50,152 nucleotides of DNA from Candidatus Micrarchaeota archaeon (lineage in GTDB: Archaea; Micrarchaeota; Micrarchaeia; Anstonellales; Bilamarchaeaceae): the NCBI GenBank assembly GCA_032123335.1, contig JAQBFN010000042.1:1-50152 (forward strand). Reading direction: 5' to 3'. The notes under the pieces are model-generated. The model made no database searches and was not told where the DNA came from. It saw only the letters and a list, made by a program, of their open reading frames with translations. A program made the translations under genes and the position numbers. Positions 299 through 16,025 of this stretch are shown here, piece after piece. How positions within the stretch are numbered: position 1 is the first letter of the stretch; every line of letters starts with the position of its first letter.

Positions 299-1936
299 CT
301 AATATTCGCCGCCCATTGGCATTCCGCCTGGCCCGCCTGGGGGCATTCCGCCCCTGCCTCCCCTGGACGCGATAATATCGTCGATCCTGAGGATAAGGCG
401 GGTGGTTTCAGTAGCGGAGGAGAGTGCCTGGGTCTTTACCTTTAAGGGTTCAAGAACACCGAGCTCGGCCATGTCGGAGATTTCGCCCTTGAGGACGTTT
501 ACCCCGAAGCCTCCTCCCTGGCCATCTTTGTGCTTGTTCCTGAGGGAAACAAGTGCATCAATGGAATCCATTCCTGCATTCTCTGCAAGTGCTTTGGGAA
601 TGGACTCGAGGGATTCTGCATATGCCTGAATTGCGAGCTGCTCCCTGCCTCCGATTTCAATTGCATATTCGTTGAGGGCTGAAGAGAGTGACATCTCGAT
701 GCTTCCGCCTCCGGTTACGTACTTTCCTACTTCCACTGTGCTTGAAACTGCGCCGAGCGAGTCCTTTATCGCGCGCTCGACTTCGGAAACAACGTGGTCG
801 GTTCCGCCACGCACGAAAATGGTTACGGACTTGGGGTGCTTGCACTCGCGCACAAATACCATTGCTTCACCGGAAACCTTCTTCTCCTCTACAAGGCCTG
901 CGATTCCAAGATCTGTGTCTGCAAGCTCGGAGATGCTTGAGACAACTTGTGCGCCTGTTGCGCGTGCAAGCTTCTCCATGTCGGATTTCTTTACCCTGCG
1001 GACTGCAAGGATGCCTGCCTTTGCAAGGTAGTGCTGGGCAACATCATCAATTCCCTTCTGGCAAAAGAGTGCTGTTGCACCGGATGCCTTTACATTCTCG
1101 ACCATTTCCCTGAGCATCTTTTCCTCCTGCTTGAGGAATGCTTCGAGCTGGTCGGGGGAGGTAATCTCGATTTTTGCATCGGTTTCGGTCTTTTCAACTT
1201 CGAATGCGGCATCTACGAGCGCAACCTTTGCGCCCTTGAGGGACTTGGGCATGCCTGCGTTCACGACTTCCTTGTCCACAAGAACCCCGTTGATGAGCTC
1301 TGTGTCCATTACATCGCCTCCCGCCTTCTTCTCGATTTTGATGAAGTCGGTGTCTACGGAATATACCCCATCTTTCTTTTCTGCAACCTTGGTGATTGAA
1401 TCCACTACGAGTTCGGAAATCTTCTGCTTTTCCTGGTCGCTGCCGATTCCCTTGGAGCCCATGGAAACAAGTGCGATTTTAAGGAGAATATCCTTGTCTT
1501 CGGGAGTTACGTCCTTTCCGAGCTTTGCGAGGAGCTCTTCAGACCTTATTGCCGCAAGCTCGTAGCCCTTTATGATTGTGGTGGGGTGGATGGACTGGTC
1601 CAGGAGGTCGCCTGCCTTCTTGAGGAGGTTTCCTGCAATTACTACGGAAGTGGTTGTGCCATCGCCTACTTCCTTATCCTGGGTCTTTGCGATTTCCACC
1701 ATCAGCTTTGCTGCAGGGTGGTCAACGTTCATTTCCTCGAGGATGGTTGCACCGTCGTTTGTAATTACGATGTCGCCAAGCTCGGAAACAAGCATCTTGT
1801 CCATGCCCTTTGGGCCGAGGGTGGTCTTGATTATGTTTGCAACCGCATATCCAATTGCGATATTGATGCGCATCGCGTCCCTGCCGATGACACGGTTTGT
1901 GCCTTCGGACATTACTTCTCCGCTAACTTTCGTCAT
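299..1936 (-). CDS. ths: Thermosome subunit (group II chaperonin)
   Basis: [26 protein letters not shown] and C-terminal [11 protein letters not shown] tail. Start set at ATG 1936 ([12 protein letters not shown]) to fit the usual N-terminus; the upstream extension in the ORF track crosses AT-rich promoter-like DNA. Confidence 0.97.
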
Positions 1937-2044
1937 ATTTTTCACACTCCAATATAGTATTATCAAAATACGTGGTGTGATTAGTGCGGAGTAATCTTTA
2001 TAAACGTATTTTTGGGCGTTTCCGCGGGTTTTTGGCACAGACGG

Positions 2045-2554
2045 CTAATCTATGCGGGAGCGGTCCACGTTCGCGGACTCGAGGAAATAGTGGAGGGTAT
2101 AGGCTGCTGCGAATGCTCCGGTGGCGAGGAAGCTGGATTCCACGAAGCCTAAATGGGAGAGGATTAGGGAGTAGGTAAGGGCTGCGAAGACCATTGCGAG
2201 GAGGCTATGGAATGGGGGCTTGGAGGGGTCGAGGAAATCAAACAGGAATATGAATAGTATGAATAGTCCTACTAGGGCTGGGAGGAGGATGCTGCAATAG
2301 GGAATAGTAATGTAATAGCAGAGGGTGGAGGCCATCGTGAAAACGTAGGCGAAAAGGAGGGCGGCCATTATAATTAGTAAATATTTGAGGTATTTCCAGA
2401 CTGGGAAGAATAGGCGGTCGAGGTCCGGGAGGACTGAGCCGATCAGGATGCTTACTGCGCAAATGAGGATTGTGGAGGAGGGGGCACCCTGGAAGGCGAG
2501 GCCTAAGGAAAAGAGGACAATGAAGGCCACTGTAACTACTACCTTGGTGCTCAT
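2045..2554 (-). CDS. Multi-pass membrane protein, YdjM-like metal-dependent hydrolase family (tentative)
   Basis: About 5 hydrophobic helices with GSVLPDLD and PFHSL motifs resembling the LPDxD and THS motifs of that family. Start set at ATG 2554. Confidence 0.55.
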   Translation of the reverse strand: MSTKVVVTVAFIVLFSLGLAFQGAPSSTILICAVSILIGSVLPDLDRLFFPVWKYLKYLLIIMAALLFAYVFTMASTLCYYITIPYCSILLPALVGLFILFIFLFDFLDPSKPPFHSLLAMVFAALTYSLILSHLGFVESSFLATGAFAAAYTLHYFLESANVDRSRID

Positions 2555-2677
2555 GATAGGAAGGAAATAGAAAAGAGAAAATAAAAAGGATTGCCCGGAG
2601 CAAACCAAGAAGGTGGCGTAACGCGGGCTATGTTTTTATGAAATTTTTACCGCAGCTTAATGCAGCAGCAAAAAATT

Positions 2678-4066
2678 TCACATGTTGAAGTATTTCTCGA
2701 ACTCGTATGAGGTCGGGCGTGCGCTCTGCTCCTTGTGCTCCTCAATCTTGTCCTCAAGGTAGCTTTCAAGTATATCCGAAGAAAGGATTCCCTTCAGGAA
2801 CTTGTTGTCGGATTCAAGGGCAGTGATTGATTCGAGTATGTTACTCGGGAGCATCTTTGCACCTGCTTTCTTGAGTTCATCGTCGTCCATGTCAGCCATG
2901 TTGGAATCGATTGCCTTGCCCGGGTCCTTTTTGTTCTTGATGCCATCAAGGCCTGCGGCCACGACTACACCTGCTGCAAGGTGAGGGTTGGCTGAGGGGT
3001 CTGCAAGGCTGAAAATTAGTTTCTTGCCCTTGCGGTCGTTCCTCATTTCGTTTTCAACGCGCACTGCGGCAGAGGAGTTCCTTGTGCCCCAGGCTGCATA
3101 CTTCGGATCTGCTGCGAGCCTCTTGTATGAGTTTGTGTTGGGGTTGGTGAAAATCATCAACGCGGCTGCGTGGTCGAGAAGGCCTCCAATGAAGTAGCGG
3201 CCGGTCTGGCTTAATTGCGCATACTTGTCCGTGGAATCGTAGAATACGTTCTCGTCCTTTTTCCAGAGAGTAAAACCGGAAAGGAGCTGGTTTCCCTTCT
3301 CCCCAAGAATCGGGAGGGCCATGAACGTGGCCATGGAATTTGCAATGAATGCAAGGTTCCGGATTGTGAACTTGGTTGTCTGGATTGCATCGGCTGCATC
3401 TGCAAGCGAAAGCGGGGCGACTGCAATGGTCTGCTGGCCGCTTGTTGACCTTCCATGGTAGTGCTTGGTTATGATGTAGCGGAAGTTGTCCTCAATCACT
3501 TCGGAAACCTGGGTTCTTGCGCTGTAAAGCGTATCGAAAGGCTGCGCATAGTAGGCGCCCTTGGTGCTGTTCCAGAGTGGGGATGGGGACCAGGGGGCTT
3601 CCCTTGATTCAATCAGGCAATTGGGACCTCTTTGGGGGGTCATTTTGTCAACGGTTACGTTGTCCAGGATGTAGAAATCCAATTCTGAGGATGAAGTGAG
3701 GTCTGTGAAACCCATGGCCTTGGAATTTACAAGGGCACGTTCGGGAACGTAGCGGGGGTCCTTGAGGTACCTTTCCCCACCGGGGCTCACAACAACGTTG
3801 CAAATGATTCTCATTGTGCTGGGTTCCCAGGGAATCCTGCCGAATGTGTTTGCATCGGGCATCAGCACGAGCTCTCCTTCTTCAGCCCAGCCGAAAACTT
3901 CCTTGAGGTCTCCGCAGTAAATTCCTTTTGTGAATGAAGCGGTGTTGATTTCCCTCGCGTTTATGCTTGTTCTGTTCATCCTTCCTTCAACATCAAAAAA
4001 CTGGAGGTCAACCCACCTTATGTTGTTGGATGAGATATACTCAAAAACATCTTCTGGAGCAGCCAT
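2678..4066 (-). CDS. glnA: Glutamine synthetase type I homolog with degenerate active site
   Basis: Full-length GSI features (WVDLQFFD, LVLMPD, IPWE, ATFM, NSYKRL, ADPSANP) but most metal and catalytic ligands are substituted (see findings). Confidence 0.85.
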   Translation of the reverse strand: MAAPEDVFEYISSNNIRWVDLQFFDVEGRMNRTSINAREINTASFTKGIYCGDLKEVFGWAEEGELVLMPDANTFGRIPWEPSTMRIICNVVVSPGGERYLKDPRYVPERALVNSKAMGFTDLTSSSELDFYILDNVTVDKMTPQRGPNCLIESREAPWSPSPLWNSTKGAYYAQPFDTLYSARTQVSEVIEDNFRYIITKHYHGRSTSGQQTIAVAPLSLADAADAIQTTKFTIRNLAFIANSMATFMALPILGEKGNQLLSGFTLWKKDENVFYDSTDKYAQLSQTGRYFIGGLLDHAAALMIFTNPNTNSYKRLAADPKYAAWGTRNSSAAVRVENEMRNDRKGKKLIFSLADPSANPHLAAGVVVAAGLDGIKNKKDPGKAIDSNMADMDDDELKKAGAKMLPSNILESITALESDNKFLKGILSSDILESYLEDKIEEHKEQSARPTSYEFEKYFNM

Positions 4067-4163
4067 ATTGATTCACCGAGGTTATTAACAAGAATAGATA
4101 AATAAAGATTACTATTCTGGGGGCTGCTCAGATTTTTAACAAGTTGCCCCCAAATTAGGGGTT

Positions 4164-5033
4164 ATGAATTCGGATCTTAAGCTCAGTGGCGGGTTAGCGC
4201 AAATGCTGAAAGGGGGAGTAATCATGGATGTTGTTACTCCGGAGCATGCAACGCTTGCGGAGAAGGCTGGCGCGGTTGCGGTGATGGCGCTGGAAAGGGT
4301 GCCTGCGGATATCCGGGCGCATGGAGGCGTTGCGCGCATGTCTGACCCTAAGATGATTAAGGGGATTATGAGGGCTGTGAGCATACCTGTAATGGCGAAA
4401 GTGAGGATTGGGCACTTTGCTGAAGCGCAGGTGCTGCAGGCGCTTGGGGTGGATTATATCGATGAAAGTGAGGTGCTTACTCCTGCGGATTCGGAATTTC
4501 ACGTGGATAAAACGAAATTTGAGGTGCCGTTTGTATGCGGGGCGAGGAACCTTGGGGAAGCATTGAGGAGGATAGATGAGGGGGCTGCGATGATTCGGAC
4601 TAAGGGGGAAGCGGGGACCGGGAACATTGTGGAAGCGGTGAAGCATATACGTACTATTTCCAGGGAGCTTGGGGTGCTCAGGAACGAGAGGCCTGCGGAT
4701 GCTGCAGAAAGGATGCGGGTATCTGAGGCGCTTGTGCTGAAAACCATTGAGCAGGGGCGTGTTCCTGTTGTTAATTTTGCTGCGGGGGGAATTGCGACTC
4801 CTGCAGATGCATCGCTTTGCATGCAGCTTGGGTGCGATGGGGTGTTTGTGGGGTCAGGGATATTCAAATCATCTAATCCTGAAAAGATGGCCTGTGCGAT
4901 TGTGGATGCTGTTGCGCACTTTAATGATGCGAAAAGGATTGCGGAAGTTTCTGAGGGGCTTGGGGAAGCGATGAGGGGGCTGGAGATTTCTGAAATTCCT
5001 GAAGACCAGAGGCTTTCTGAGCGGGGAGTGTAA
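4164..5033 (+). CDS. pdxS: Pyridoxal 5'-phosphate synthase lyase subunit
   Basis: [69 protein letters not shown]. Confidence 0.98.
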
Positions 5034-5602
5034 TGAAGATTGGGGTTCTTGCGCTTCAGGGTGCGGTTTCTGAGCATGTTGGATATTTGGAGAGGACGAT
5101 GGGGAAGCTTGGAATTGGTGGGGAAGTTGTTGAAGTAAGAAGTAATCTTGAGCTTGAGGGATTGGATGGGCTGGTGATGCCCGGGGGGGAGAGCACTACG
5201 CTTTCGCTGCTTATGGAAAGGGAAGGGATGTTTGAAACACTGGGGGAGATTCCTAAAATATTCGGGACTTGTGCTGGGGCGATACTGCTTTCTAAGAATA
5301 TTCTTGAGCCAGTGAATGGGCAGAAATCGCTTGGGTTGGTTGATATTGGGATTTCCAGGAATGGGTATGGGCGGCAGTTGGAATCGTTTGAAGCCCCTCT
5401 TGAAACAACGCTTGGGAATTTGGAGGGGGTGTTCATCCGGGCTCCGGTGATTGAAAAGGTTGGGGAGGGGGTGGAGGTGCTTGCAACGCACAAAGGGAAG
5501 GCAGTTGCGGTGCAGCAGGGGAAGTATGTTGCGACAACATTCCATCCTGAATTGTCCGGTTCAACGCTGTTCCATGAGCACTTTCTGAAAATTGATAGGT
5601 AA
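5033..5602 (+). CDS. pdxT: Pyridoxal 5'-phosphate synthase glutaminase subunit
   Basis: IGVLALQG, PGGESTT, GTCAG, RNGYGRQLESFE, FIRAP, FHPEL; start overlaps the pdxS stop. Confidence 0.98.
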   Translation: MKIGVLALQGAVSEHVGYLERTMGKLGIGGEVVEVRSNLELEGLDGLVMPGGESTTLSLLMEREGMFETLGEIPKIFGTCAGAILLSKNILEPVNGQKSLGLVDIGISRNGYGRQLESFEAPLETTLGNLEGVFIRAPVIEKVGEGVEVLATHKGKAVAVQQGKYVATTFHPELSGSTLFHEHFLKIDR

Positions 5603-5992: not shown

Positions 5993-8900
5993 CTATTTCT
6001 TAGGCGGGATTGTAGAGGGGCCTCGTTCGGGCCTCTTGGGCTGGATTGACTTTCCCTCCCTTGCGGGCGGGGGTATCCTTAGCCTTTCCAGAACCCTTGC
6101 AGCTGCGAGTATTTGTTCAGAAGAAATTTCTTCAGTATGCATTGGGCCAAGCTCTTCCCTCATTTTCTTGAGTTTGCGTGCGGTTGAATTTGCTTCGCGG
6201 ATTCCTGCACGAACCTCTTCGAGCATTTCTAATCCTTTGCTTACTGTTTCTTCGTCCCACCATTCTGTTGACGCACCAAGTGCACAAACTATCGGGTGTT
6301 GTGGATCTGCAAGGGAATGAATAGTTTTTTCATCCACCAGGCCCCTTTCCCTAAGTTCAGCAAGAAGCACAAAGCTCTTCATTGAATTTTCTTTTTCTGA
6401 GTCAGGTTTGAGCCAGGTTCCTTCCAATGCTTCAACCATCCTCCTGAGACCGTGCTCAACAAGTATGTTTCGCACCTCTTTACTGGGGGTTTTGTCAAGA
6501 CGGCCATAGGTGCCAAGCATAAGGACATCAAGCAAGATTTGGGCTTCTGCCACCTGGTTTTGGGGCAGCCTGTCCGGGAGCTTCCTTGCTGCATCATAAT
6601 CGATATCAGGATCTGCCCTGGAAGCCCAGAGAAGCTCTGAAATTGATTTAAGGCCATGGTCAAAGAAGCCTTCCATGTCCCCGAATGTTCCCATGAATTC
6701 CAGGAAAAGGTCTGCTGATTCGGTAGAGCCCCGGCCATGCAGGAATTCGGTTATTACTGCCTCCTTGAGGAACCTGTATGGGATTGGGTCAGCGCCCGGT
6801 TCTTCAACTGGAGAGACTATCTCTGCCATTTTGTTCAGCTGGCCCCCAAAGAGGATTTGCTGGTAGGGCTTTTCAAGCGGAAGGGTCAGGCTTTCGGGCT
6901 CGGCTCCTTTAAGTTCATGGGCAGCCTGCATAGCATAGTGGACGTTTCCGGATAAAAGGAAGATGTCTATTGCCGAAAGTAGGAGGTCTGGATCTTTGCT
7001 GCTTAGCGCAGCATTGAACATACGTTCTGCTGATGGGCCTTCTGCGATCTCCAGGATTGTGTTGCGGATTTCCTCCTGGTCAAAGCGAGTGTATGCCTCC
7101 AGTAAAAGATACATGTCTTCTTCTGTAGGCTCTTCCATCCTGTCAGACGTTGTTCCAGAAAGAGTTTTGCAGAAATAGCTGAGTGCGTTATCAATTGTTG
7201 CCACCTCATCTTCAGCTGCGTTATCCCTGAACTTAAAGAACTGGTGGAGTGACTTGGGGTGCTGGAAGAACCTTAGTGTTGAGAGTACGGTATTCCTATC
7301 TGTAAGGAGTATTGTGTCTTCTTTTTCCAAATGGGCTGAAAGCTCATCCAGTTTTTCCGGGTGGTTCTGGAGTATTGCATCTGCAACCCTCTGCCTCACG
7401 ATTTCTGAAGTATGGTCATGTGCAAGGAAGACAATCAATCGCTCCGGGGTCATAAGTGAAGCTGCAACTTCTGCTGCACGGACTGCAACTTCCTTGGTTT
7501 CATCCTCAACAAGGCCAATAATCCTGTCTAAATATGTTTCCTGCATGGGGAGGAGATTAAGGGCGGCAAGTTTCACTTTATTGTTTTCTGAAGATAATGC
7601 GGTCAGGAGAGCATCGGTTTTTTCAGAAGAGTTTGGTGCTGCCTCAAGCGCATCGTATACATTGGACCTTACTGCCCTGGAGTGGTCTCCAGTGAGGGGC
7701 ACCAACAAGCCATACCTTCCGGTTTCCAAGAGAAGCCGGAGGGACTTATCTGAAATTCTTTTCATTCCCTCAATAGTGATGTTATCCGGATGATTCTCCC
7801 TTTTTGTTGCATCCAAAAGAATACTGGTTCCGTCCTCTCCAATATTAAGGAGGAAATCTGCAGCCATCTGGGAAACTGCCTCATCCATGCCAAGGCAGGG
7901 AACGAGCACGCGCTCTGCGTGTTCCTTTTCCCCTGAAGTGTACGCTGCATTCATTAGTTGGGTCAGGGAAATGAAGTTATTCTGGCGCTCAAACTCTTCA
8001 ACTGCGGCTGAAACTGCTTTGCAGTCAACCTCTTTACTGCGCATCTGCCTTGCAATCTCATACATGGAAAGGGTTGATGCTGTAGGGTCTTTTCCAAGAG
8101 AGGAAAACAGGTGTTCTGTCTCGATGTTTATAAGGAACTCCCCTGGATTTGCGAGAAGCGCTTCTCTTGCAAGTTCCCTGAGCTTGGGGTCCTTGTCATC
8201 AATAAATATGTTTGAAAGGCCTTCAATATTCTCCACTGCAGGGATTACTTCAACCTCGGAAAGGAAAAGCTGCAGCCTTTCCTTTGCTAAATCTGAAAGG
8301 GCTTCGTTTGGATGGTTCCTCATTCCATAAAGGATTGTGAATTCCTTTTCAGGGGGAATTGCAGAAAGGTCCATGTCAATAAGTGCCCTTTCTGCGGCAA
8401 TGGCAACTGCGGTGTTTTTGCTGTGGGATGCTTCAAGAATAAATTCTGCGTTCGTGTGGGTGAGCTCCCTTCTATGGAGGGCAGTTATTGCTGCTGCCTG
8501 CTTTTCAGGTTCCAGTTTAGGGAATGTATCCATGATCATGGTGTCGGTTTCCAATGCTTTTGATTGCTGAAGCACTACTGCCCATGCTGTGGTGTGTTCC
8601 TCCTCTTCTGAATCATGCAATCTTTGCAGTGCAAATTCAGCTGCAGCAGGAGAATCCATGTTCGAAATTGCTGCAGCGATTGAGATTTCCCTTTGTGATT
8701 CATCTCCGCGGCCAAGGTAGTGGAGGAATTCTTCTGCAATGCTTGCCTCCTCCTTGGTGTAGTATTCTTCAGAAGTGGATGGGAAAATGTTGCCAGGCAT
8801 TTGGCTTCTGTATGAATTGAGTGTATCAAGAAGGACTGAATCAATTCCTTCCGGGTTTGCCTCCCTTGAATGTTTCAGGTAATACATTAAGCTTTCCTGG

Positions 8901-11086
8901 GGAACATCCATATCTGAAATGGAGAGCAATATCCTGGAGAACCTGGCGTGGTGCTCGGGGGTTAGTGCATAAGAATTCAGCTCTCTGAGCGCAAGTTCTT
9001 GAGGAGTTATAACAGCATCAGGCTGGTCGCCCCCATACATCCCATAAATCCTGAACCGTTCTGCAAGAACATCAATTGCATAATCTTTTTCTGTTTCAGA
9101 ACCAAGGAGCAGCTTTTTCTCTATTACGGGGTTTGAGGTATTATGGGGTGCCGCTGCAAGGACAGAAACCAGGAGGCTGGAGTTCCTTCTAGAAGACCAG
9201 TTGTGGCCTGAAACGTGCGGTAATGAGAGTAATGCTGAAACTGCTTTTGTTGAGAGATTTGATTCCTCAAAGTTTGCAAGGGCTGCAAGCTCGAGTACTA
9301 ACTTCTGGGGGGATTCCTCATCTATTTCCAACAGTTTTAGGAGCTCGTATACTGCAAGCGCCCTTTCATGTATCGCAAGCTCTTCGGAAGCAATATCCTC
9401 TAGGTGCCCTCCTGCATCTTCAAGAACTGAGAATATCTTTGCTTCGGGCATGGCAAGGGATTCGGCGATTTCTTCTGCGTCCTCGTCGGTTGTCTCTCCT
9501 GCTTCATCTTCTTCAGGAGCCGGTCCAGGCGCTTGTTCCTGCTCTTTTGCTGTTCTAGGCTCTTCTGCCACCCTCACGCTTTCCAGGGGGTTCCATTCCA
9601 TTGCTTCGAGCTCTTCCCTGGTTACAAAGCCGATTCCATAGATATGAATAAGATCTGCTGGCTCTGCTTCAGGTTCAGATGAAAGCGATTCGGGCGGAGG
9701 AAGCTCTTCTTCCTGCTCTTCTGCTTCTTCAGGTTCTTCCACAGGTGCAGCAGGCTCTTCGCTAAGCGGGCCTCCAAAGAACACTGCTTCGTTTTCAGAG
9801 GTGTCTCCTTCCCCATAAAGGGAAATGAGCCTGTTTGCTATAATGTATTTTTCTTCATCTGCAGAGTCGAGTGCAACATCGTAGTATGCCACAACATTTG
9901 CTTCTACTTCCGGCTGTGCTGCAATTTGCTTTATCCTTTCCAAGAGGTCTTCCCGGGTCTGGGGAACGGAAAGGGATTTCTTTTTTACAAGAAACTCTCT
10001 TCCAATTGGGAGGAGAATCTTGCATGCGAGTATGTTCCTTGTGAGCGCATTTGCTTCGGAAACCTCTGCGTTGGCGATTACCATGGCAGAGTTGAGCAAT
10101 ACGTGTGGGGGCTGGCCTTTGAAGAATGAAAGGCCTATGGATTTGTGGTCTACTGGCTCTTCGGACTGGAGACGGGAAACCCAGGAGGTGGGTTCGAAGA
10201 GCAGTGTTCTTTCGATGTGCACTTTTGATTCTTCCTTGGGGGGCTGGAGGGCTGCCCTGAATTCAGCGTGGAGTTCCTTACGCGGACCACGCCTTTCTTT
10301 TTCGCTTATTTTGCGGATGCGCTTGTAAACCTCGAGCCCAAGGTTAGTAAGATTGTTTTCAGGATCCACTAGGTCTGTTTTAAGATCATCCAGAAATGCT
10401 GCCCTGAACTTGATTCCCCCTTCAAGGGAAACAGATGCTTCGAGTATGTTTGTGGTTGCAGCTGCCTTTTTCTTGGTATTTGGTGCGTCTTTGAGTGAGG
10501 AATGAAGGTAGCCAAACGCCCACATTTCCTTGTTTTCGTTGCCTTCTGATATGGTAAGGAGTTTTGAAATCCTTGATTTGGCACCGATTCCTGTAACGAA
10601 ACCTGCTGAAGGGGATTTGTATGTGATGGCCAATTCGCCCAACGCACATGCTGAAGATATTGGTCCCCCTATTTCTGCATCATCATAATAGCCATTAAAC
10701 TGGTTGATATAGCCAAATGTTTCCTGGCGGACACTCATCATTGATTTCCAGAGGGACTGGGACATTGCACCTTCCATAAGTATTGAATTAAGGTCACGCG
10801 CCAGTTGTTCGGCCTCATTCATTATTGTGGGGGCGGCAGCGAGGAGGATCTTGTATTTCTGCTCGGCTGCGAGGTCGGTGCCAGCACCTATTTTAGTGGT
10901 TTTGAGCGCCATTATTGCTTGCGCTGCCTTCTTTGTGTATCCATGCTTGAGAATTGTTTTCTTTGCCTTGTCCGCTGCGTCTGTGGATGCAGGTTTTCCG
11001 CCTTTCCAGGAGAAGTGGAGTTCCTTCAGAGCCTTGTCAAAATCTGGGGCATCTTCGAAGACCTTACCTTTACTATGACTAGTCAT
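5993..11086 (-). CDS. 1697-aa acidic alpha-helical protein with HEAT-like repeats, function unknown
   Basis: Long ORF with host-like codon bias; Glu/Pro-rich linker around aa 440-545; recurring HEAT-like units (VRSNVYDALE, VKLAALNLL, VAVRAAEVA, VRQRVADAI). Confidence 0.7.
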   Translation of the reverse strand: MTSHSKGKVFEDAPDFDKALKELHFSWKGGKPASTDAADKAKKTILKHGYTKKAAQAIMALKTTKIGAGTDLAAEQKYKILLAAAPTIMNEAEQLARDLNSILMEGAMSQSLWKSMMSVRQETFGYINQFNGYYDDAEIGGPISSACALGELAITYKSPSAGFVTGIGAKSRISKLLTISEGNENKEMWAFGYLHSSLKDAPNTKKKAAATTNILEASVSLEGGIKFRAAFLDDLKTDLVDPENNLTNLGLEVYKRIRKISEKERRGPRKELHAEFRAALQPPKEESKVHIERTLLFEPTSWVSRLQSEEPVDHKSIGLSFFKGQPPHVLLNSAMVIANAEVSEANALTRNILACKILLPIGREFLVKKKSLSVPQTREDLLERIKQIAAQPEVEANVVAYYDVALDSADEEKYIIANRLISLYGEGDTSENEAVFFGGPLSEEPAAPVEEPEEAEEQEEELPPPESLSSEPEAEPADLIHIYGIGFVTREELEAMEWNPLESVRVAEEPRTAKEQEQAPGPAPEEDEAGETTDEDAEEIAESLAMPEAKIFSVLEDAGGHLEDIASEELAIHERALAVYELLKLLEIDEESPQKLVLELAALANFEESNLSTKAVSALLSLPHVSGHNWSSRRNSSLLVSVLAAAPHNTSNPVIEKKLLLGSETEKDYAIDVLAERFRIYGMYGGDQPDAVITPQELALRELNSYALTPEHHARFSRILLSISDMDVPQESLMYYLKHSREANPEGIDSVLLDTLNSYRSQMPGNIFPSTSEEYYTKEEASIAEEFLHYLGRGDESQREISIAAAISNMDSPAAAEFALQRLHDSEEEEHTTAWAVVLQQSKALETDTMIMDTFPKLEPEKQAAAITALHRRELTHTNAEFILEASHSKNTAVAIAAERALIDMDLSAIPPEKEFTILYGMRNHPNEALSDLAKERLQLFLSEVEVIPAVENIEGLSNIFIDDKDPKLRELAREALLANPGEFLINIETEHLFSSLGKDPTASTLSMYEIARQMRSKEVDCKAVSAAVEEFERQNNFISLTQLMNAAYTSGEKEHAERVLVPCLGMDEAVSQMAADFLLNIGEDGTSILLDATKRENHPDNITIEGMKRISDKSLRLLLETGRYGLLVPLTGDHSRAVRSNVYDALEAAPNSSEKTDALLTALSSENNKVKLAALNLLPMQETYLDRIIGLVEDETKEVAVRAAEVAASLMTPERLIVFLAHDHTSEIVRQRVADAILQNHPEKLDELSAHLEKEDTILLTDRNTVLSTLRFFQHPKSLHQFFKFRDNAAEDEVATIDNALSYFCKTLSGTTSDRMEEPTEEDMYLLLEAYTRFDQEEIRNTILEIAEGPSAERMFNAALSSKDPDLLLSAIDIFLLSGNVHYAMQAAHELKGAEPESLTLPLEKPYQQILFGGQLNKMAEIVSPVEEPGADPIPYRFLKEAVITEFLHGRGSTESADLFLEFMGTFGDMEGFFDHGLKSISELLWASRADPDIDYDAARKLPDRLPQNQVAEAQILLDVLMLGTYGRLDKTPSKEVRNILVEHGLRRMVEALEGTWLKPDSEKENSMKSFVLLAELRERGLVDEKTIHSLADPQHPIVCALGASTEWWDEETVSKGLEMLEEVRAGIREANSTARKLKKMREELGPMHTEEISSEQILAAARVLERLRIPPPAREGKSIQPKRPERGPSTIPPKK

Positions 11087-12305: not shown

Positions 12306-13553
12306 TCAGTTTCTGGACCGGGAAAAGAGTGCTGCAAAAACAAATGCGAGAGAAAGGGTGATTAGGGGGCAGGGCTCGCTTTCATCCTGCGGGGGCGTGT
12401 ACTCCTCTTCAGGCTCCCCATTAGAGGGGGTTCCCTTTACTATTGTGTGCTCCCCGGTGAGGGTTGTGCCCTGGACAGATATCTGGTAGGGGATGCTGTG
12501 GGAAAACCCGGACTCAAGATCTCCTGTGCTGAGATGGTAAGTGAGGGTTTCAGAGCCCTGGGGAGGGATTGTGAGGATTCGGGTATCCCTGGGGAGAATA
12601 AATTCGGGCATTGAAAGTTCATATGTGGGGGTTACGTACTGGCCTGTGGGGTTGTAGACCACAACCTTCAGGTCATCACCATAAAGGACACTGTGGATGA
12701 AAAGGATCTCTTCAAAGGACTGTTTTTCTGAGGTTTTTACTGTAACCGTGCTGTTGAATATGAATCCCTTTCCCCTTGCAACAAGGATGTCATATACGCC
12801 GCTTTGGTCGTATGAGTAGCTGGCTACAATGTGCCTTGCATCAAGTGCGCCTACCTCGCGGAAAGTGGGGTCTACGGGGACCCAGTTGCCGCCAACCTTG
12901 ACTTCTGCCCATGCGTGTGGCTGCCAGTCGTCTGCGAACGCATAGCCTGAAACAAAGCGGGTTTCAAATCCAAGGGAGCGCACCATGGAAATAAAGAGGT
13001 GGCTGTAGCCTACGCAAACGCCGCGGGGATCCTGGAAAACGGAGGTTGCGGGTGCAGGGTCACCCCAAAAAGAGAGATCATAGCTTATGTATTCGTGGGT
13101 CCAGTCTGCAAGTGCAGCAATTACTTCCAGCTCGGTTTCTTTTTCAGCGGAGAGGGATTTTGCAGCGGAAGAGATTGCATCATCCGGGTTGATGAGCCCT
13201 GTGCTCTCCATTTCGTGGGGCTCAAAAGGGGCGTTGGACTGGATGGTGATGGGATAGGATGAGCGGACGAGGGCAGTTGCTGTGATTATTTTTCCCCCGG
13301 TGAATTCCTCATCGTTGAAGATCACCCGGATTGTGCCATTGCTGTTTTCGAATTCTGCACCATCATCAGTCAGGTTTATCTGGAGGATTTTCTGGTGCTC
13401 ATTCTCAATGAGGAATGTGCCGTTGAGAGTTACATCTGTAATTGTTTCATTTGTGAAAAGGTACCAGGTTTTTTCTATCTCGACAACCACTTCTCCTGCG
13501 GAGAATGAGAATAATGGAAGGATAAAAAGTAAAATAAGGAAAAAGATTCTCAT
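12306..13553 (-). CDS. Secreted transglutaminase-like domain protein with C-terminal membrane anchor
   Basis: Signal peptide; GVCVGYSHLF, HAWAEV and WVPVDPT give a Cys-His-Asp triad; C-terminal hydrophobic tail. Confidence 0.88.
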   Translation of the reverse strand: MRIFFLILLFILPLFSFSAGEVVVEIEKTWYLFTNETITDVTLNGTFLIENEHQKILQINLTDDGAEFENSNGTIRVIFNDEEFTGGKIITATALVRSSYPITIQSNAPFEPHEMESTGLINPDDAISSAAKSLSAEKETELEVIAALADWTHEYISYDLSFWGDPAPATSVFQDPRGVCVGYSHLFISMVRSLGFETRFVSGYAFADDWQPHAWAEVKVGGNWVPVDPTFREVGALDARHIVASYSYDQSGVYDILVARGKGFIFNSTVTVKTSEKQSFEEILFIHSVLYGDDLKVVVYNPTGQYVTPTYELSMPEFILPRDTRILTIPPQGSETLTYHLSTGDLESGFSHSIPYQISVQGTTLTGEHTIVKGTPSNGEPEEEYTPPQDESEPCPLITLSLAFVFAALFSRSRN

Positions 13554-15874
13554 GCCTTTAATCGCCTCACGTGCTCCATGCGGCGCTTTATGAGGTCTTT
13601 GGTTCCGATGTCTTTCCTGTGCCAGAGCGGGCCCTTTACAAAAGACATTGCATCCTCAGCTGCCTTTTCTGCGTCCTCAAGCGTTTCTGCCTGGGCAACA
13701 AGAGCGGCTGTCCTGGAGGTGGTTGTGTAAACCGTCCCGTCCTTTTCATATACTGAGCCGAAATAGAGTTTAGTTCCTGTGTTCCAAAGGCCTTCTTTAT
13801 CTATGGAAATGGGCTGGTCGGCTTTGCCCTCGGTGGGGTAGCCTTCGGGAACGAGATACTTTACAACTGTGCAGTTGTTGCTGAAGCTGACGGGGATGAG
13901 CTTTCCTTCAGCCATTGAAAGGAAAACCTCTGAAAGCTGGGTTTTGAGAAGGGCAAGGACGTTCATTGCCTCGGGGTCTCCGAACCTTGCGTTGAATTCA
14001 ATTACCTTTATGCCGTTTTTTGTGAGCATGAACTGGCCATAGAGGATGCCCGTGAATGGGTTGCCTTCATTTTTCATTTCGGCCAGGGTTTTCTGCATTA
14101 TGCCCTTGGCTTCTTCCAGGTCTTTTTGCTCAAGGAATGGGAGGAGCTTGCCCGTGGAATAGCTTCCCATGCCCCCAGTATTTCCACATATGGCTACTCT
14201 TAGGTTCCTTCTAACAATTATGAAACCTGTAGAAACGGTGACACAACCAATATATCCTGAGTATTCGTAAGTGTGGATGTCCTTTTTACGAATAGATGTT
14301 TTTTGTTTTTTGTTTATTTCGATGGAATATACTGGTCTTGCTCGATATTCTTTGCCAGTTAGAGGACTAATCATTTTTTTTCGTTTATCGATTGTAACAA
14401 CCCCCACCTTTCCAATTTTTAGGATTAGTTCTTGAATACCGCCAATCAGTTGTTTTGAGTTTGTGTGGAACCGCATCTGCCCCCGATGAGTGCTCCCGTC
14501 TCCTAAATGGAATGTCTTGAGGAAACGTAGGATTTGTTCCTGTTTAGAATTTTTAATATAATCAGGCACGAATTTCTCATAGGATTTACCAAATCCACTC
14601 AAACATTCCATCAGTTGCCCTGAATTAATTCGGAACTTGTTGTCATTGTAGCTAACTTCAAATGGAAGTTTTTCTAGGATGTTTTTCATCTTTGAAAAGT
14701 TTTTGGATTTTTTAGTTTGGCAAATATAGGCCCGCTTTCCACCTGATTTAGAATTAGAAACATATCCTTCGGATAGAAATAAACCTAAAAATTCTATCCA
14801 ATCATCAAATTTTATTTTAATGGATTTGCTCTTTGGACCATATCGATTAGTGGATTTGGGCAGCGTAAAATATTTTCTTGAGGTGCCAATCCAATTGCCT
14901 GTTTGAGGAATGAATTTTTCCCCTTTCCAATTCTGAGCTTCAATAACTTGGAATTTGGAGTTTTTCCCCTTTCGGTTTTCCACCAACATTCTGTGATTAG
15001 GAGTGACAAGCAAGTCAATTTCTCGGTGTTTAAAATTAATCATTTTGCCTCGGTATTTTTTCCAATAAATCTCTTTTGGCTTCTCAAACCTTATTCTTTT
15101 GAATCTGGGCTGGAATATTGCAACAACATCTGTTTTTTTCAGGGCACCGAAGGTTTTCCAACCCTCAGTCGTAAGTATTTCCGTATCTTCTGAATAACAA
15201 TTCGGGCCGGAATCTCCTTCGAATGCGCGCTTGTGGTCCTGGACGGGGGGCATGAGCGCGAGGCTTGTGCCGTCGCAGAATGCCTGGAGGGTGAATTCCT
15301 CCCCATCCAATCGCTCCTCAATAAGCACGTTGCCGTCTTTTTCTATGAGCTCGGAGCAGTAATCAAGGATTTCCTGGTCGGATTTGAGGTGCTCGCCGGA
15401 AATTTTTACGCCTTTCCCCCCAGTAAGGCCAAGGGGCTTGATTGCAACATTCCCGATTTCGGAAATTGCTTCCTTTGCCTCATCAAGAGAGGATGCGATT
15501 TTGATTGCGGGGCATCCGGGGATTTCCTTTGTGCGCATGAGGTTGCGCGCATATCCTTTGTCCCATTCAATCATTGCGGCTTTTTTGAGGGGGGAGGCGC
15601 AGGGGATGCCCAAATCCGCGAAAGTGTCGGTTACTCCCTGGGCAAGAAGGCCATCGGGGCTTACAAATGCAACATCTATTCCCTTGGATTTTGCCCACTG
15701 GCCGACTACGGAAGAATCGGAGGGGTCATGGATAAGGAACTCCTCGGAAAGGGAGGCAATGCCCGGGTGCTTCTTGGGCATTATCGAATATAATGATGCG
15801 CTCTTTGAAAGCTGCTCGGCAATTATGTGCTCCCTGGCGCCTGTGCCTACAAGCAAAACTTTCATGTCAGTCAC
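13550..15874 (-). CDS. purD: Phosphoribosylamine-glycine ligase interrupted by an intein
   Basis: VLLVGTGAREH, IKPLGLTGGKGV, QDHKRAFEGD, GPN|TGGMG split by a 340-aa insert, EFNARFGDPE. Confidence 0.96.
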   Translation of the reverse strand: MTDMKVLLVGTGAREHIIAEQLSKSASLYSIMPKKHPGIASLSEEFLIHDPSDSSVVGQWAKSKGIDVAFVSPDGLLAQGVTDTFADLGIPCASPLKKAAMIEWDKGYARNLMRTKEIPGCPAIKIASSLDEAKEAISEIGNVAIKPLGLTGGKGVKISGEHLKSDQEILDYCSELIEKDGNVLIEERLDGEEFTLQAFCDGTSLALMPPVQDHKRAFEGDSGPNCYSEDTEILTTEGWKTFGALKKTDVVAIFQPRFKRIRFEKPKEIYWKKYRGKMINFKHREIDLLVTPNHRMLVENRKGKNSKFQVIEAQNWKGEKFIPQTGNWIGTSRKYFTLPKSTNRYGPKSKSIKIKFDDWIEFLGLFLSEGYVSNSKSGGKRAYICQTKKSKNFSKMKNILEKLPFEVSYNDNKFRINSGQLMECLSGFGKSYEKFVPDYIKNSKQEQILRFLKTFHLGDGSTHRGQMRFHTNSKQLIGGIQELILKIGKVGVVTIDKRKKMISPLTGKEYRARPVYSIEINKKQKTSIRKKDIHTYEYSGYIGCVTVSTGFIIVRRNLRVAICGNTGGMGSYSTGKLLPFLEQKDLEEAKGIMQKTLAEMKNEGNPFTGILYGQFMLTKNGIKVIEFNARFGDPEAMNVLALLKTQLSEVFLSMAEGKLIPVSFSNNCTVVKYLVPEGYPTEGKADQPISIDKEGLWNTGTKLYFGSVYEKDGTVYTTTSRTAALVAQAETLEDAEKAAEDAMSFVKGPLWHRKDIGTKDLIKRRMEHVRRLKA
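14180..15199 (-). mobile_element. 340-aa intein with LAGLIDADG homing endonuclease inside purD
   Basis: Starts with Cys (CYSEDTEILT), block B TPNH, two LAGLIDADG-like helices (FLGLFLSEG, FLKTFHLGDG), ends ...VAICGN before extein Thr; segment is visibly more AT-rich than its flanks. Confidence 0.93.
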
Positions 15875-16025
15875 CTTTGAATAGTTGGGAAAATGTTTTC
15901 ATGAATGTGGAAACAAATCCTGCCTCAGGCTCTTTTATGATTTCAAATGATTTGTATTTGGGGAAGTTCTTGACTACTGCGAAATTGTAAAGTTCCTTCC
16001 TCTTGGGAGTTTTTGGCGGCATTTG

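Follow-up and report, generated by a model that had tools for sequence, protein, structure and literature searches.

A phylum-wide degenerate glutamine synthetase of Micrarchaeota, predicted to be catalytically dead and retained under purifying selection

Contig JAQBFN010000042.1 of a Candidatus Micrarchaeota archaeon (assembly GCA_032123335.1), analysed here over 50,152 nucleotides (the window), carries on its minus strand an uninterrupted open reading frame (ORF) of 462 codons with an ATG start, whose product (P0001) has the fold of a type I glutamine synthetase (GSI) and has lost catalytic residues of that enzyme. The gene and its orthologs are referred to below as pseudo-GS, and glutamine synthetase as GS. 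A sequence-only reading of this DNA had described the gene as a full-length GS pseudoenzyme, a description that our analysis bears out: the frame is intact, both GS domains are present, and residues needed for catalysis are gone. The features of the gene are as follows.

2678..4066, minus strand: coding sequence of the GS-fold pseudoenzyme, 462 aa (ORF, Pfam, AlphaFold2, Foldseek)
3791..4024, minus strand: N-terminal beta-grasp domain, aa 15-92, with G52-D53-L54 as the equivalent of the Asp50 loop (Pfam PF03951)
2690..3763, minus strand: GS catalytic-domain fold, aa 102-459, catalytically degenerate (Pfam PF00120, 258 bits)
4098..4107, minus strand: TATA-like box, candidate promoter element

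The two Pfam domains, Gln-synt_N and Gln-synt_C, were found with E values of 3.6e-10 and 1.3e-76, respectively. The GlnA equivalog model TIGR00653 spans the protein from end to end, its score (332.9 bits) remaining below the cut-off of 429.15. The single-chain AlphaFold2 model, based on a family alignment of 54 sequences, has a mean predicted local distance difference test score of 89.6 and a predicted template modelling (TM) score of 0.90, with aa 140-180 as its weakest part. In a Foldseek search against the PDB, the top matches were exclusively GSI dodecamers (TM 0.85-0.91, 27-31% identity), originating from E. coli, Salmonella, Synechocystis, M. tuberculosis, and Methanosarcina. Pseudo-GS is a complete GSI protomer rather than a fragment. 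Moreover, residues E455 and Y459 of the C-terminal helix are conserved as in canonical GS (column comparison), and the protein may well still form a ring oligomer of the GS type. The TATA-like box CTTTATTTAT lies 32-41 nt before the ATG, within the 97-bp spacer that separates the gene from the divergent pdxS, and is a putative promoter element of pseudo-GS.

Catalytic residues were mapped by alignment to Salmonella GS (1f1h) with HMMER, and the mapping was repeated with MAFFT in three sequence sets. The degenerate motifs recognized in these alignments are listed here.

3674..3691, minus strand: SSELDF, aa 126-131, in place of GPEPEF; E129 is kept, E131 is replaced by Asp
3428..3463, minus strand: HYHGRSTSGQQT, aa 202-213, in place of HHHEVATAGQNE; E212 is replaced by G205, E220 by T213, and V213 by R206
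3275..3295, minus strand: GNQLLSG, aa 258-264, in place of GSGMHCH; H269 is replaced by L262, H271 by G264, and the preceding N264 by K257
3098..3127, minus strand: YKRLAADPKY, aa 314-323; R321 corresponds to R316, the Glu327 flap is lost by deletion
3008..3022, minus strand: KLIFS, aa 349-353, in place of RIEVR; E357 is replaced by I351, R359 by S353

All five had been read correctly from the sequence (the second of them as YHGR...GQQT). Two of the six metal ligands remain, E129 as E128 and E131 as Asp (D130), the other four (E212, E220, H269, and E357) being replaced by G205, T213, L262, and I351. Among the contacts to ATP and phosphate, H271 and R359 have become G264 and S353, and R355 is Lys; R344 is kept, while R339 is kept according to the HMMER alignment and is Ser according to the MAFFT alignments. 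In the ammonium site, Y179 is replaced by Ala and S53 is lost, and a three-residue deletion takes out Y326/E327 of the Glu327 flap. The sequence-only reading had also pointed to a change of the FDGSS motif. The motif is indeed altered; however, the register chosen for it (YCGDL) was slightly off, as both HMMER and L-INS-i pair FDGSS with G-D-L-K-E (MAFFT --auto places it off by two), so that Asp50 is probably kept as D53.

The same losses characterize the whole clade of degenerate copies. Position 212 is Gly in 131 of its 132 members, H211 and Q218 are invariant, and the gap at the flap is present in 132/132 (one MAFFT alignment). E220, H269, and E357 are never kept among the approximately 130 members, except for E357 in a very divergent outlier (L051), and the ATP-contact positions H271, R339, R344, R359, and F225 vary within the clade. 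As a control, 22 sites were scored in 16 canonical GS genes of related genomes; all 22 were intact in all 16, and therefore the degenerate pattern is far beyond chance. Without the four lost metal ligands, the Glu327 flap, His271, and Arg359, ATP-dependent glutamine synthesis by the known mechanism would not be possible, and the alignments lead us to regard the two-metal, ATP-dependent reaction as excluded for pseudo-GS.

The distribution of the gene was examined in this genome and 40 related ones (41 in total), 25 of which, including this one, belong to a single family of the GTDB taxonomy (f1). A degenerate GS is encoded in all 25 genomes of the family (approximately 230-290 bits to PF00120). 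It is accompanied by a canonical GS (approximately 300-466 bits) in 12 and is the sole GS in the other 13, six of which are at least 90% complete. Within the genus, a canonical GS is absent from seven of eight genomes, this one included: in its 1.04-Mb assembly (54 contigs, 87% complete) the ORF at 2678-4066 is the only match to Gln-synt_C, and no second glnA was found with this profile in the 87% of the genome that is assembled.

Pseudo-GS is maintained by selection, as the sequence-only reading had supposed. The ratio of nonsynonymous to synonymous substitution rates (dN/dS), calculated by the Nei-Gojobori method (NG86) for pairs of orthologs within the genus, was 0.04 between the gene of this genome and L027 (dN 0.030, dS 0.75) and 0.03-0.06 for other unsaturated pairs. 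The adjacent pdxS gave 0.07-0.09 for the same genome pairs; hence, purifying selection on pseudo-GS is as strong as on the neighboring enzyme. It is equally strong in genomes that carry the degenerate copy alone. Frameshifts and neutral decay among orthologs, named beforehand as what would speak against maintenance, were not seen, and all copies are intact save one. This exception (L047 of genome G010, G010:C69; minus frame, near locus position 3360) is interrupted by one in-frame TAG where Tyr291 is otherwise invariant (GR*CVGG), for which sequencing error, recent nonsense mutation, and read-through are possible explanations; the genome in question also has a canonical GS. A decaying pseudogene is thus ruled out by the dN/dS values together with the intact frames, this one TAG in one relative notwithstanding. 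In another relative, G009, two pseudo-GS matches with identical scores were found (G009:C1:45386-46450 and G009:C40:962-2026), representing either a recent duplication or assembly redundancy. Taken together, we consider it very probable that pseudo-GS is dead for GS chemistry and is maintained for another function.

In the maximum-likelihood tree, the degenerate clade is monophyletic (100/99) and stands apart from the GSI-alpha-like and GSI-beta-like copies of Micrarchaeota genomes; the canonical GS of the relatives, where present, belongs to either of these two lineages. In a scan of GTDB species representatives, all matches of at least 45% identity came from Micrarchaeota (including Bilamarchaeaceae, Anstonellales, and Micrarchaeales), while the tier at 36-44% identity consisted of fully canonical GS from a few Micrarchaeota, Sulfolobales, Nitrososphaeria, Bathyarchaeota, Methanoperedens, and Freyarchaeota. 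A second tree, built by a quick search with support from the Shimodaira-Hasegawa-like approximate likelihood ratio test (marked by asterisks), nests the degenerate clade inside archaeal GSI. The canonical L101 and the canonical L095 (100*) are followed by a group (96*) comprising the partly degenerate L097 and L098 and the main degenerate clade, the latter on a long stem of 0.64 (100*). L097 and L098 have lost E212, E220, and H269 and keep the ATP-binding arginines. The corresponding genomes form a series: in G045 and G046 the native canonical gene stands alone, in G041 a second canonical GS accompanies it, G042 and G043 pair a partly degenerate copy with a canonical one, and G044 has nothing but a degenerate copy. 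Catalytic loss occurred once, early, in a lineage within the native archaeal GSI of Micrarchaeota. Deeper degenerate clusters (33-47% identity) turned up among 1.84 billion cluster representatives; they share an H-x-H-G signature and, where named, come from Anstonellales or Micrarchaeia. Therefore, the radiation is old and, as sampled, confined to Micrarchaeota.

The tree and the gene counts suggest the following course of events. A second GS would have relieved the lineage's own glnA of catalysis; the native GS would then have lost metal site n1 and His269 first, and the flap and the ATP site afterwards, acquiring or keeping another function. Finally, the catalytic GS would have been lost in about half of the family, and the repurposed copy never.

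Column conservation was compared between a non-redundant set of the clade and canonical GS. The regions that differ are given below.

aa 46-60, Asp50 loop: 0.59 in the clade, 0.74 in canonical GS
aa 121-135, E129/E131: 0.63 in the clade, 0.75 in canonical GS
aa 196-225, E212/E220: 0.54-0.61 in the clade, 0.65-0.76 in canonical GS
aa 256-270, N264-H271: 0.64 in the clade, 0.81 in canonical GS
aa 316-360, flap/R339/R344/E357: 0.52-0.64 in the clade, 0.68-0.80 in canonical GS
aa 1-15, N-terminal helix: 0.66 in the clade, 0.37 in canonical GS
aa 76-90: 0.78 in the clade, 0.59 in canonical GS
aa 136-165: 0.63-0.73 in the clade, 0.46-0.58 in canonical GS
aa 181-195: 0.73 in the clade, 0.50 in canonical GS
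aa 286-300: 0.86 in the clade, 0.73 in canonical GS
aa 421-450: 0.58-0.71 in the clade, 0.43-0.54 in canonical GS

Constraint appears to have left the catalytic pocket and to rest now on the N-terminal helix, the central-loop/channel region, and the C-terminal helices. In Salmonella GS, the 137-170 region and the C-terminal helices provide inter-ring and central-channel contacts. Residues that hold the alpha-amino-acid head group seem to persist in the family-level clade, with E or D at position 131 in 131 of 132 members, an invariant G265, and R or K at position 321 in 131 of 132. Basic residues have also come in: 113 of the 132 members have K or R at position 264, V213 is replaced by Arg in 71%, and in the protein studied here the resulting K257 and R206 would be placed where the two metal ions were. 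Judged from these substitutions, the basic residues and the kept head-group sites would fit a pocket that has no metal and takes an anionic or amino-acid ligand. Two other candidate features were rejected. Binding of nucleic acids by charge was dismissed on the isoelectric point (median 5.65) and net charge, which are the same as in canonical GS, and the loop REAxWxPSP is not a new motif, its S-x-E-A-x-W part being inherited from canonical archaeal and beta-type GS.

In this genus the gene order is pyrD, thermosome, a small membrane protein, and pseudo-GS, with pdxS-pdxT divergent. The immediate neighbors in the window are the following.

299..2038, minus strand: thermosome (Cpn60_TCP1, Pfam, 587 bits)
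2045..2608, minus strand: small multi-pass membrane protein without a Pfam family, downstream of pseudo-GS (ORF)
4164..5602, plus strand: pdxS and pdxT, glutamine-dependent pyridoxal 5'-phosphate (PLP) synthase, divergent from pseudo-GS (Pfam SOR_SNZ, SNO)

We clustered all ORFs lying up to 4 kb from pseudo-GS at 77 loci, which correspond to 56 non-redundant genes. The most recurrent neighbor is the thermosome, which is found at 17 of the 56 non-redundant loci; of the 25 loci where the flanking sequence reaches at least 3 kb on each side, 7 have it. The thermosome-bearing loci span 45-100% identity and show three arrangements (downstream tandem, convergent, and upstream tandem); no thermosome gene lies beside canonical or partly degenerate native GS copies. 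This linkage is a weak lead to proteostasis and not evidence of an operon. The membrane protein, which carries a conserved GSxLPDLD motif, follows pseudo-GS directly on the same strand at 6-316 bp in 14 loci of a subclade of 57-100% identity, where the two genes are probably co-transcribed, and is absent beside more distant members of the clade. A PGM/PMM gene lies upstream in divergent orientation in another subclade only, and pdxST beside pseudo-GS is confined to this genus (synteny). No operon partner is clade-wide, the membrane protein, PGM/PMM, and pdxST each being restricted to a subclade or genus.

Several other genes of the window deserve mention. A protein with a transglutaminase core (PF01841, 83 bits) is encoded 8 kb from pseudo-GS (12306-13655, minus strand). 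PurD (GARS_N, GARS_A, GARS_C; 13550-15898, minus strand) is split by a LAGLIDADG domain, which suggests an intein. An acidic protein of 1697 aa without a clear domain is encoded at 5993-11086 on the minus strand; at the syntenic position in L034 there is a much larger gene (2758 aa) with a faint match to HEAT_2.

The reading that we favor, with a probability of about 60%, is that pseudo-GS would be a catalytically dead descendant of Micrarchaeota's own GSI, maintained as a non-catalytic, assembly-competent oligomer of the GS type; its selected function would be non-enzymatic, namely the binding of a partner protein and/or of a small anionic or amino-acid ligand, or a scaffolding role. Three points weigh against it. 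First, that the newly constrained regions face the assembly and channel surfaces is our assumption, carried over from the structure of Salmonella GS. Second, no consistent partner emerges from the genomic context, given that even the thermosome lies within 4 kb of the gene at only 17 of 56 non-redundant loci. Third, deeper degenerate clusters (33-43% identity) vary even at E131, G265, and R321, and therefore no ligand pocket can account for a function shared by the entire radiation.

One possible, if on balance unlikely, alternative is a small-molecule sensor, in which the metal-free, flap-opened Glu/Gln pocket would bind glutamine, glutamate, or another anionic metabolite and signal the state of nitrogen or host supply to a partner, in a way similar to that of feedback-inhibited GS with GlnR/TnrA. 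The conserved head-group residues and the positive residues at the metal-site positions of the family-level clade are in its favor, and so is the metabolic setting. The genome encodes glutamate dehydrogenase, and no ammonium transporter (Amt), no real GOGAT, and no canonical GS were found in it. Glutamine-dependent enzymes are nevertheless kept: PdxT is encoded next to pseudo-GS, PurF and a PurS-PurL fusion are encoded in the window, 17-30 kb away, and one class-I amidotransferase (GATase) is encoded elsewhere in the genome. The organism needs glutamine without a recognizable way to make it; therefore, import from the host is the obvious inference. The description of the window as rich in glutamine-consuming genes accordingly holds in a loose sense (pdxT, purF, and purL/S), with the reservation that the pdxST neighborhood does not extend beyond the genus.

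Several observations do not agree with a sensor. Members of the deeper radiation also lose the head-group residues. PII is the usual partner of archaeal GS, and PF00543 was found in none of the 41 genomes, by which PII/GlnK was rejected as a partner of pseudo-GS. A 2-oxoglutarate allosteric site has been described for archaeal (methanogen) GS (PMC10799026). It was considered for pseudo-GS and rejected: its aromatic residue is kept (W18), and the equivalent of Arg20 is Asp20 in a transitive alignment via B. subtilis GS, which amounts to a partial check.

A bolder proposal joins elements of the sensor with those of the thermosome linkage. Under it, the dead protein would form a cage or scaffold specific to the phylum, which these symbionts cannot do without and which matters more to them than the synthesis of glutamine, serving either as a thermosome-linked proteostasis factor or as a sensor that couples host-supplied glutamine to the synthesis of purines, PLP, and cytidine triphosphate. 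We regard this proposal as speculative and rather improbable; if true, no prokaryotic GS-fold pseudoenzyme before pseudo-GS would have had a defined role outside metabolism.

New chemistry, in which the protein would act on a glutamyl or other substrate with one metal ion or none via E128/D130, H204, Q211, R316, and K257/R206, would agree with the very strong purifying selection and with the invariance of a subset of pocket residues. However, all characterized GS-like ligases keep, to our knowledge, both the metal and the ATP residues, whereas the ATP contacts vary within the clade of pseudo-GS. PuuA-like and GSIII models also score far under their cut-offs, with 190.7 bits against 650 for NF045547 and 176.5 bits against 469.6 for TIGR03105. 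Switches of substrate are documented for other GS-like enzymes (PMC8394153, PMC8998196); still, we judge a new reaction to be decidedly improbable here.

A role in proteostasis, with a GS-type oligomer acting beside the thermosome as holdase, client, or co-factor, convergent with the role of lengsin, would account for the recurrence of the thermosome gene at loci of 45-100% identity in three arrangements, and for its absence beside canonical and partly degenerate native copies. The linkage is, however, missing in approximately 70% of the loci, no arrangement of the co-transcription type is conserved across subclades, and the pattern may be residual ancestral synteny, which makes such a cage a very doubtful explanation. 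Least probable is the idea of the sequence-only reading that pseudo-GS is a regulatory or scaffold subunit co-assembling with an active GS. Assembly of the GS type would agree with the fold and with the motifs of the C-terminal helix, and 12 of the 25 family genomes hold both kinds of copies, but no active GS is present here (unless in the missing 13% of the assembly) or in 12 further genomes of the family, so that a hetero-oligomer is untenable for this genome and half of the family; moreover, the canonical partners, where present, stem from two different lineages (alpha or beta), and selection is equally strong where the degenerate copy is alone.

Other unusual GS were met in the searches. 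P0125 from Candidatus Auribacterota (4424 aa, MDX9701877.1) is a giant protein of six tandem complete GS units. The 16 tabulated catalytic sites of the C-domain, E129-R359, are intact in 6/6 units, except that E207 is replaced by Arg, and Y179 aligns in one unit only; P0125 may be a single-chain hexameric GS ring. A second giant protein, P0146 (2757 aa), consists of three tandem complete GS units. P0152 from Chloroflexota (469 aa, MDA0364304.1), named 'type I glutamate--ammonia ligase', has ERREAASAGQAEI in place of HHEVAxxGQxE together with E129R, E131Q, and H269R, and is a separate, partly degenerate GS outside archaea.

GS is among the oldest and most conserved enzymes. The nearest active relatives of pseudo-GS are canonical GSI (GlnA) of Micrarchaeota (L095, 44% identity) and of Sulfolobales, Nitrososphaeria, Methanoperedens, and Freyarchaeota (36-40%). 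Like these, it has the two-domain fold (TM approximately 0.9 to dodecamers) and the length of a GSI, the insertion of the GSI-beta/TACK type with the S-x-E-A-x-W loop, the motifs NSYKR and DPxxNPYL...AGLDGI, and the C-terminal helix. In contrast to them, it retains two of six metal ligands, one of them as Asp, and lacks the Glu327 flap as well as Y179, H271, and R359. In the public records the family goes under the names 'glutamine synthetase', 'glutamine synthetase family protein', or 'hypothetical protein', and no published description of a degenerate GS family of Micrarchaeota was found in full-text literature searches. As automatic annotation gives dead genes the name of the enzyme, metabolic reconstructions of Micrarchaeota that assign ammonium assimilation to such genes are probably mistaken in the case of genomes such as this.

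We know of very few cases in which the GS fold has survived without its chemistry, lengsin being the textbook example. It is a GS-fold pseudoenzyme of the vertebrate lens, retained for a non-enzymatic role, reportedly a structural, chaperone-like one. Lengsin (PDB 2j9i) and pseudo-GS are alike in having a class I GS fold, in having lost catalytic residues, and in being retained, and their sequences show a weak match (E 4.5e-7). Their origins, however, are independent, as the Micrarchaeota clade nests in archaeal GSI, and the resemblance is convergent. Moreover, pseudo-GS has no N-terminal extension, it belongs to a prokaryotic symbiont whose genome is reduced, and the degenerate copy is here a core gene, often the only one with a GS fold. 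These very small genomes have dropped the active GS in approximately half of the cases and the dead one never, which points to a non-catalytic function selected more strongly than nitrogen assimilation.

Protein contacts of GS oligomers have precedents, as feedback-inhibited GS partners GlnR/TnrA in Bacillus and GS interacts with GlnK/sP26 in Methanosarcina; PDB entries 7tfa and 8tge are among the structural neighbors of pseudo-GS found by Foldseek. Unlike pseudo-GS, those proteins are active enzymes, and PII is absent here. A different fate is exemplified by PuuA, GlnA2-4 of Streptomyces and Mycobacterium, and GlnA-2 of Haloferax, GS paralogs that are no longer glutamine synthetases and have remained active ligases (PMC8394153, PMC8998196, PMC13740247). 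Pseudo-GS differs from the gamma-glutamyl-amine ligases (PuuA, GlnA2-4, GMAS) in the loss of metal ligands and in scoring below the cut-offs of the corresponding models. Set beside these systems, the pseudo-GS family is a clear, phylum-wide, and evolutionarily well-resolved case of a GS-fold pseudoenzyme, and the series from canonical through partly and fully degenerate genes to a degenerate sole copy offers a tractable natural model of pseudoenzyme birth.

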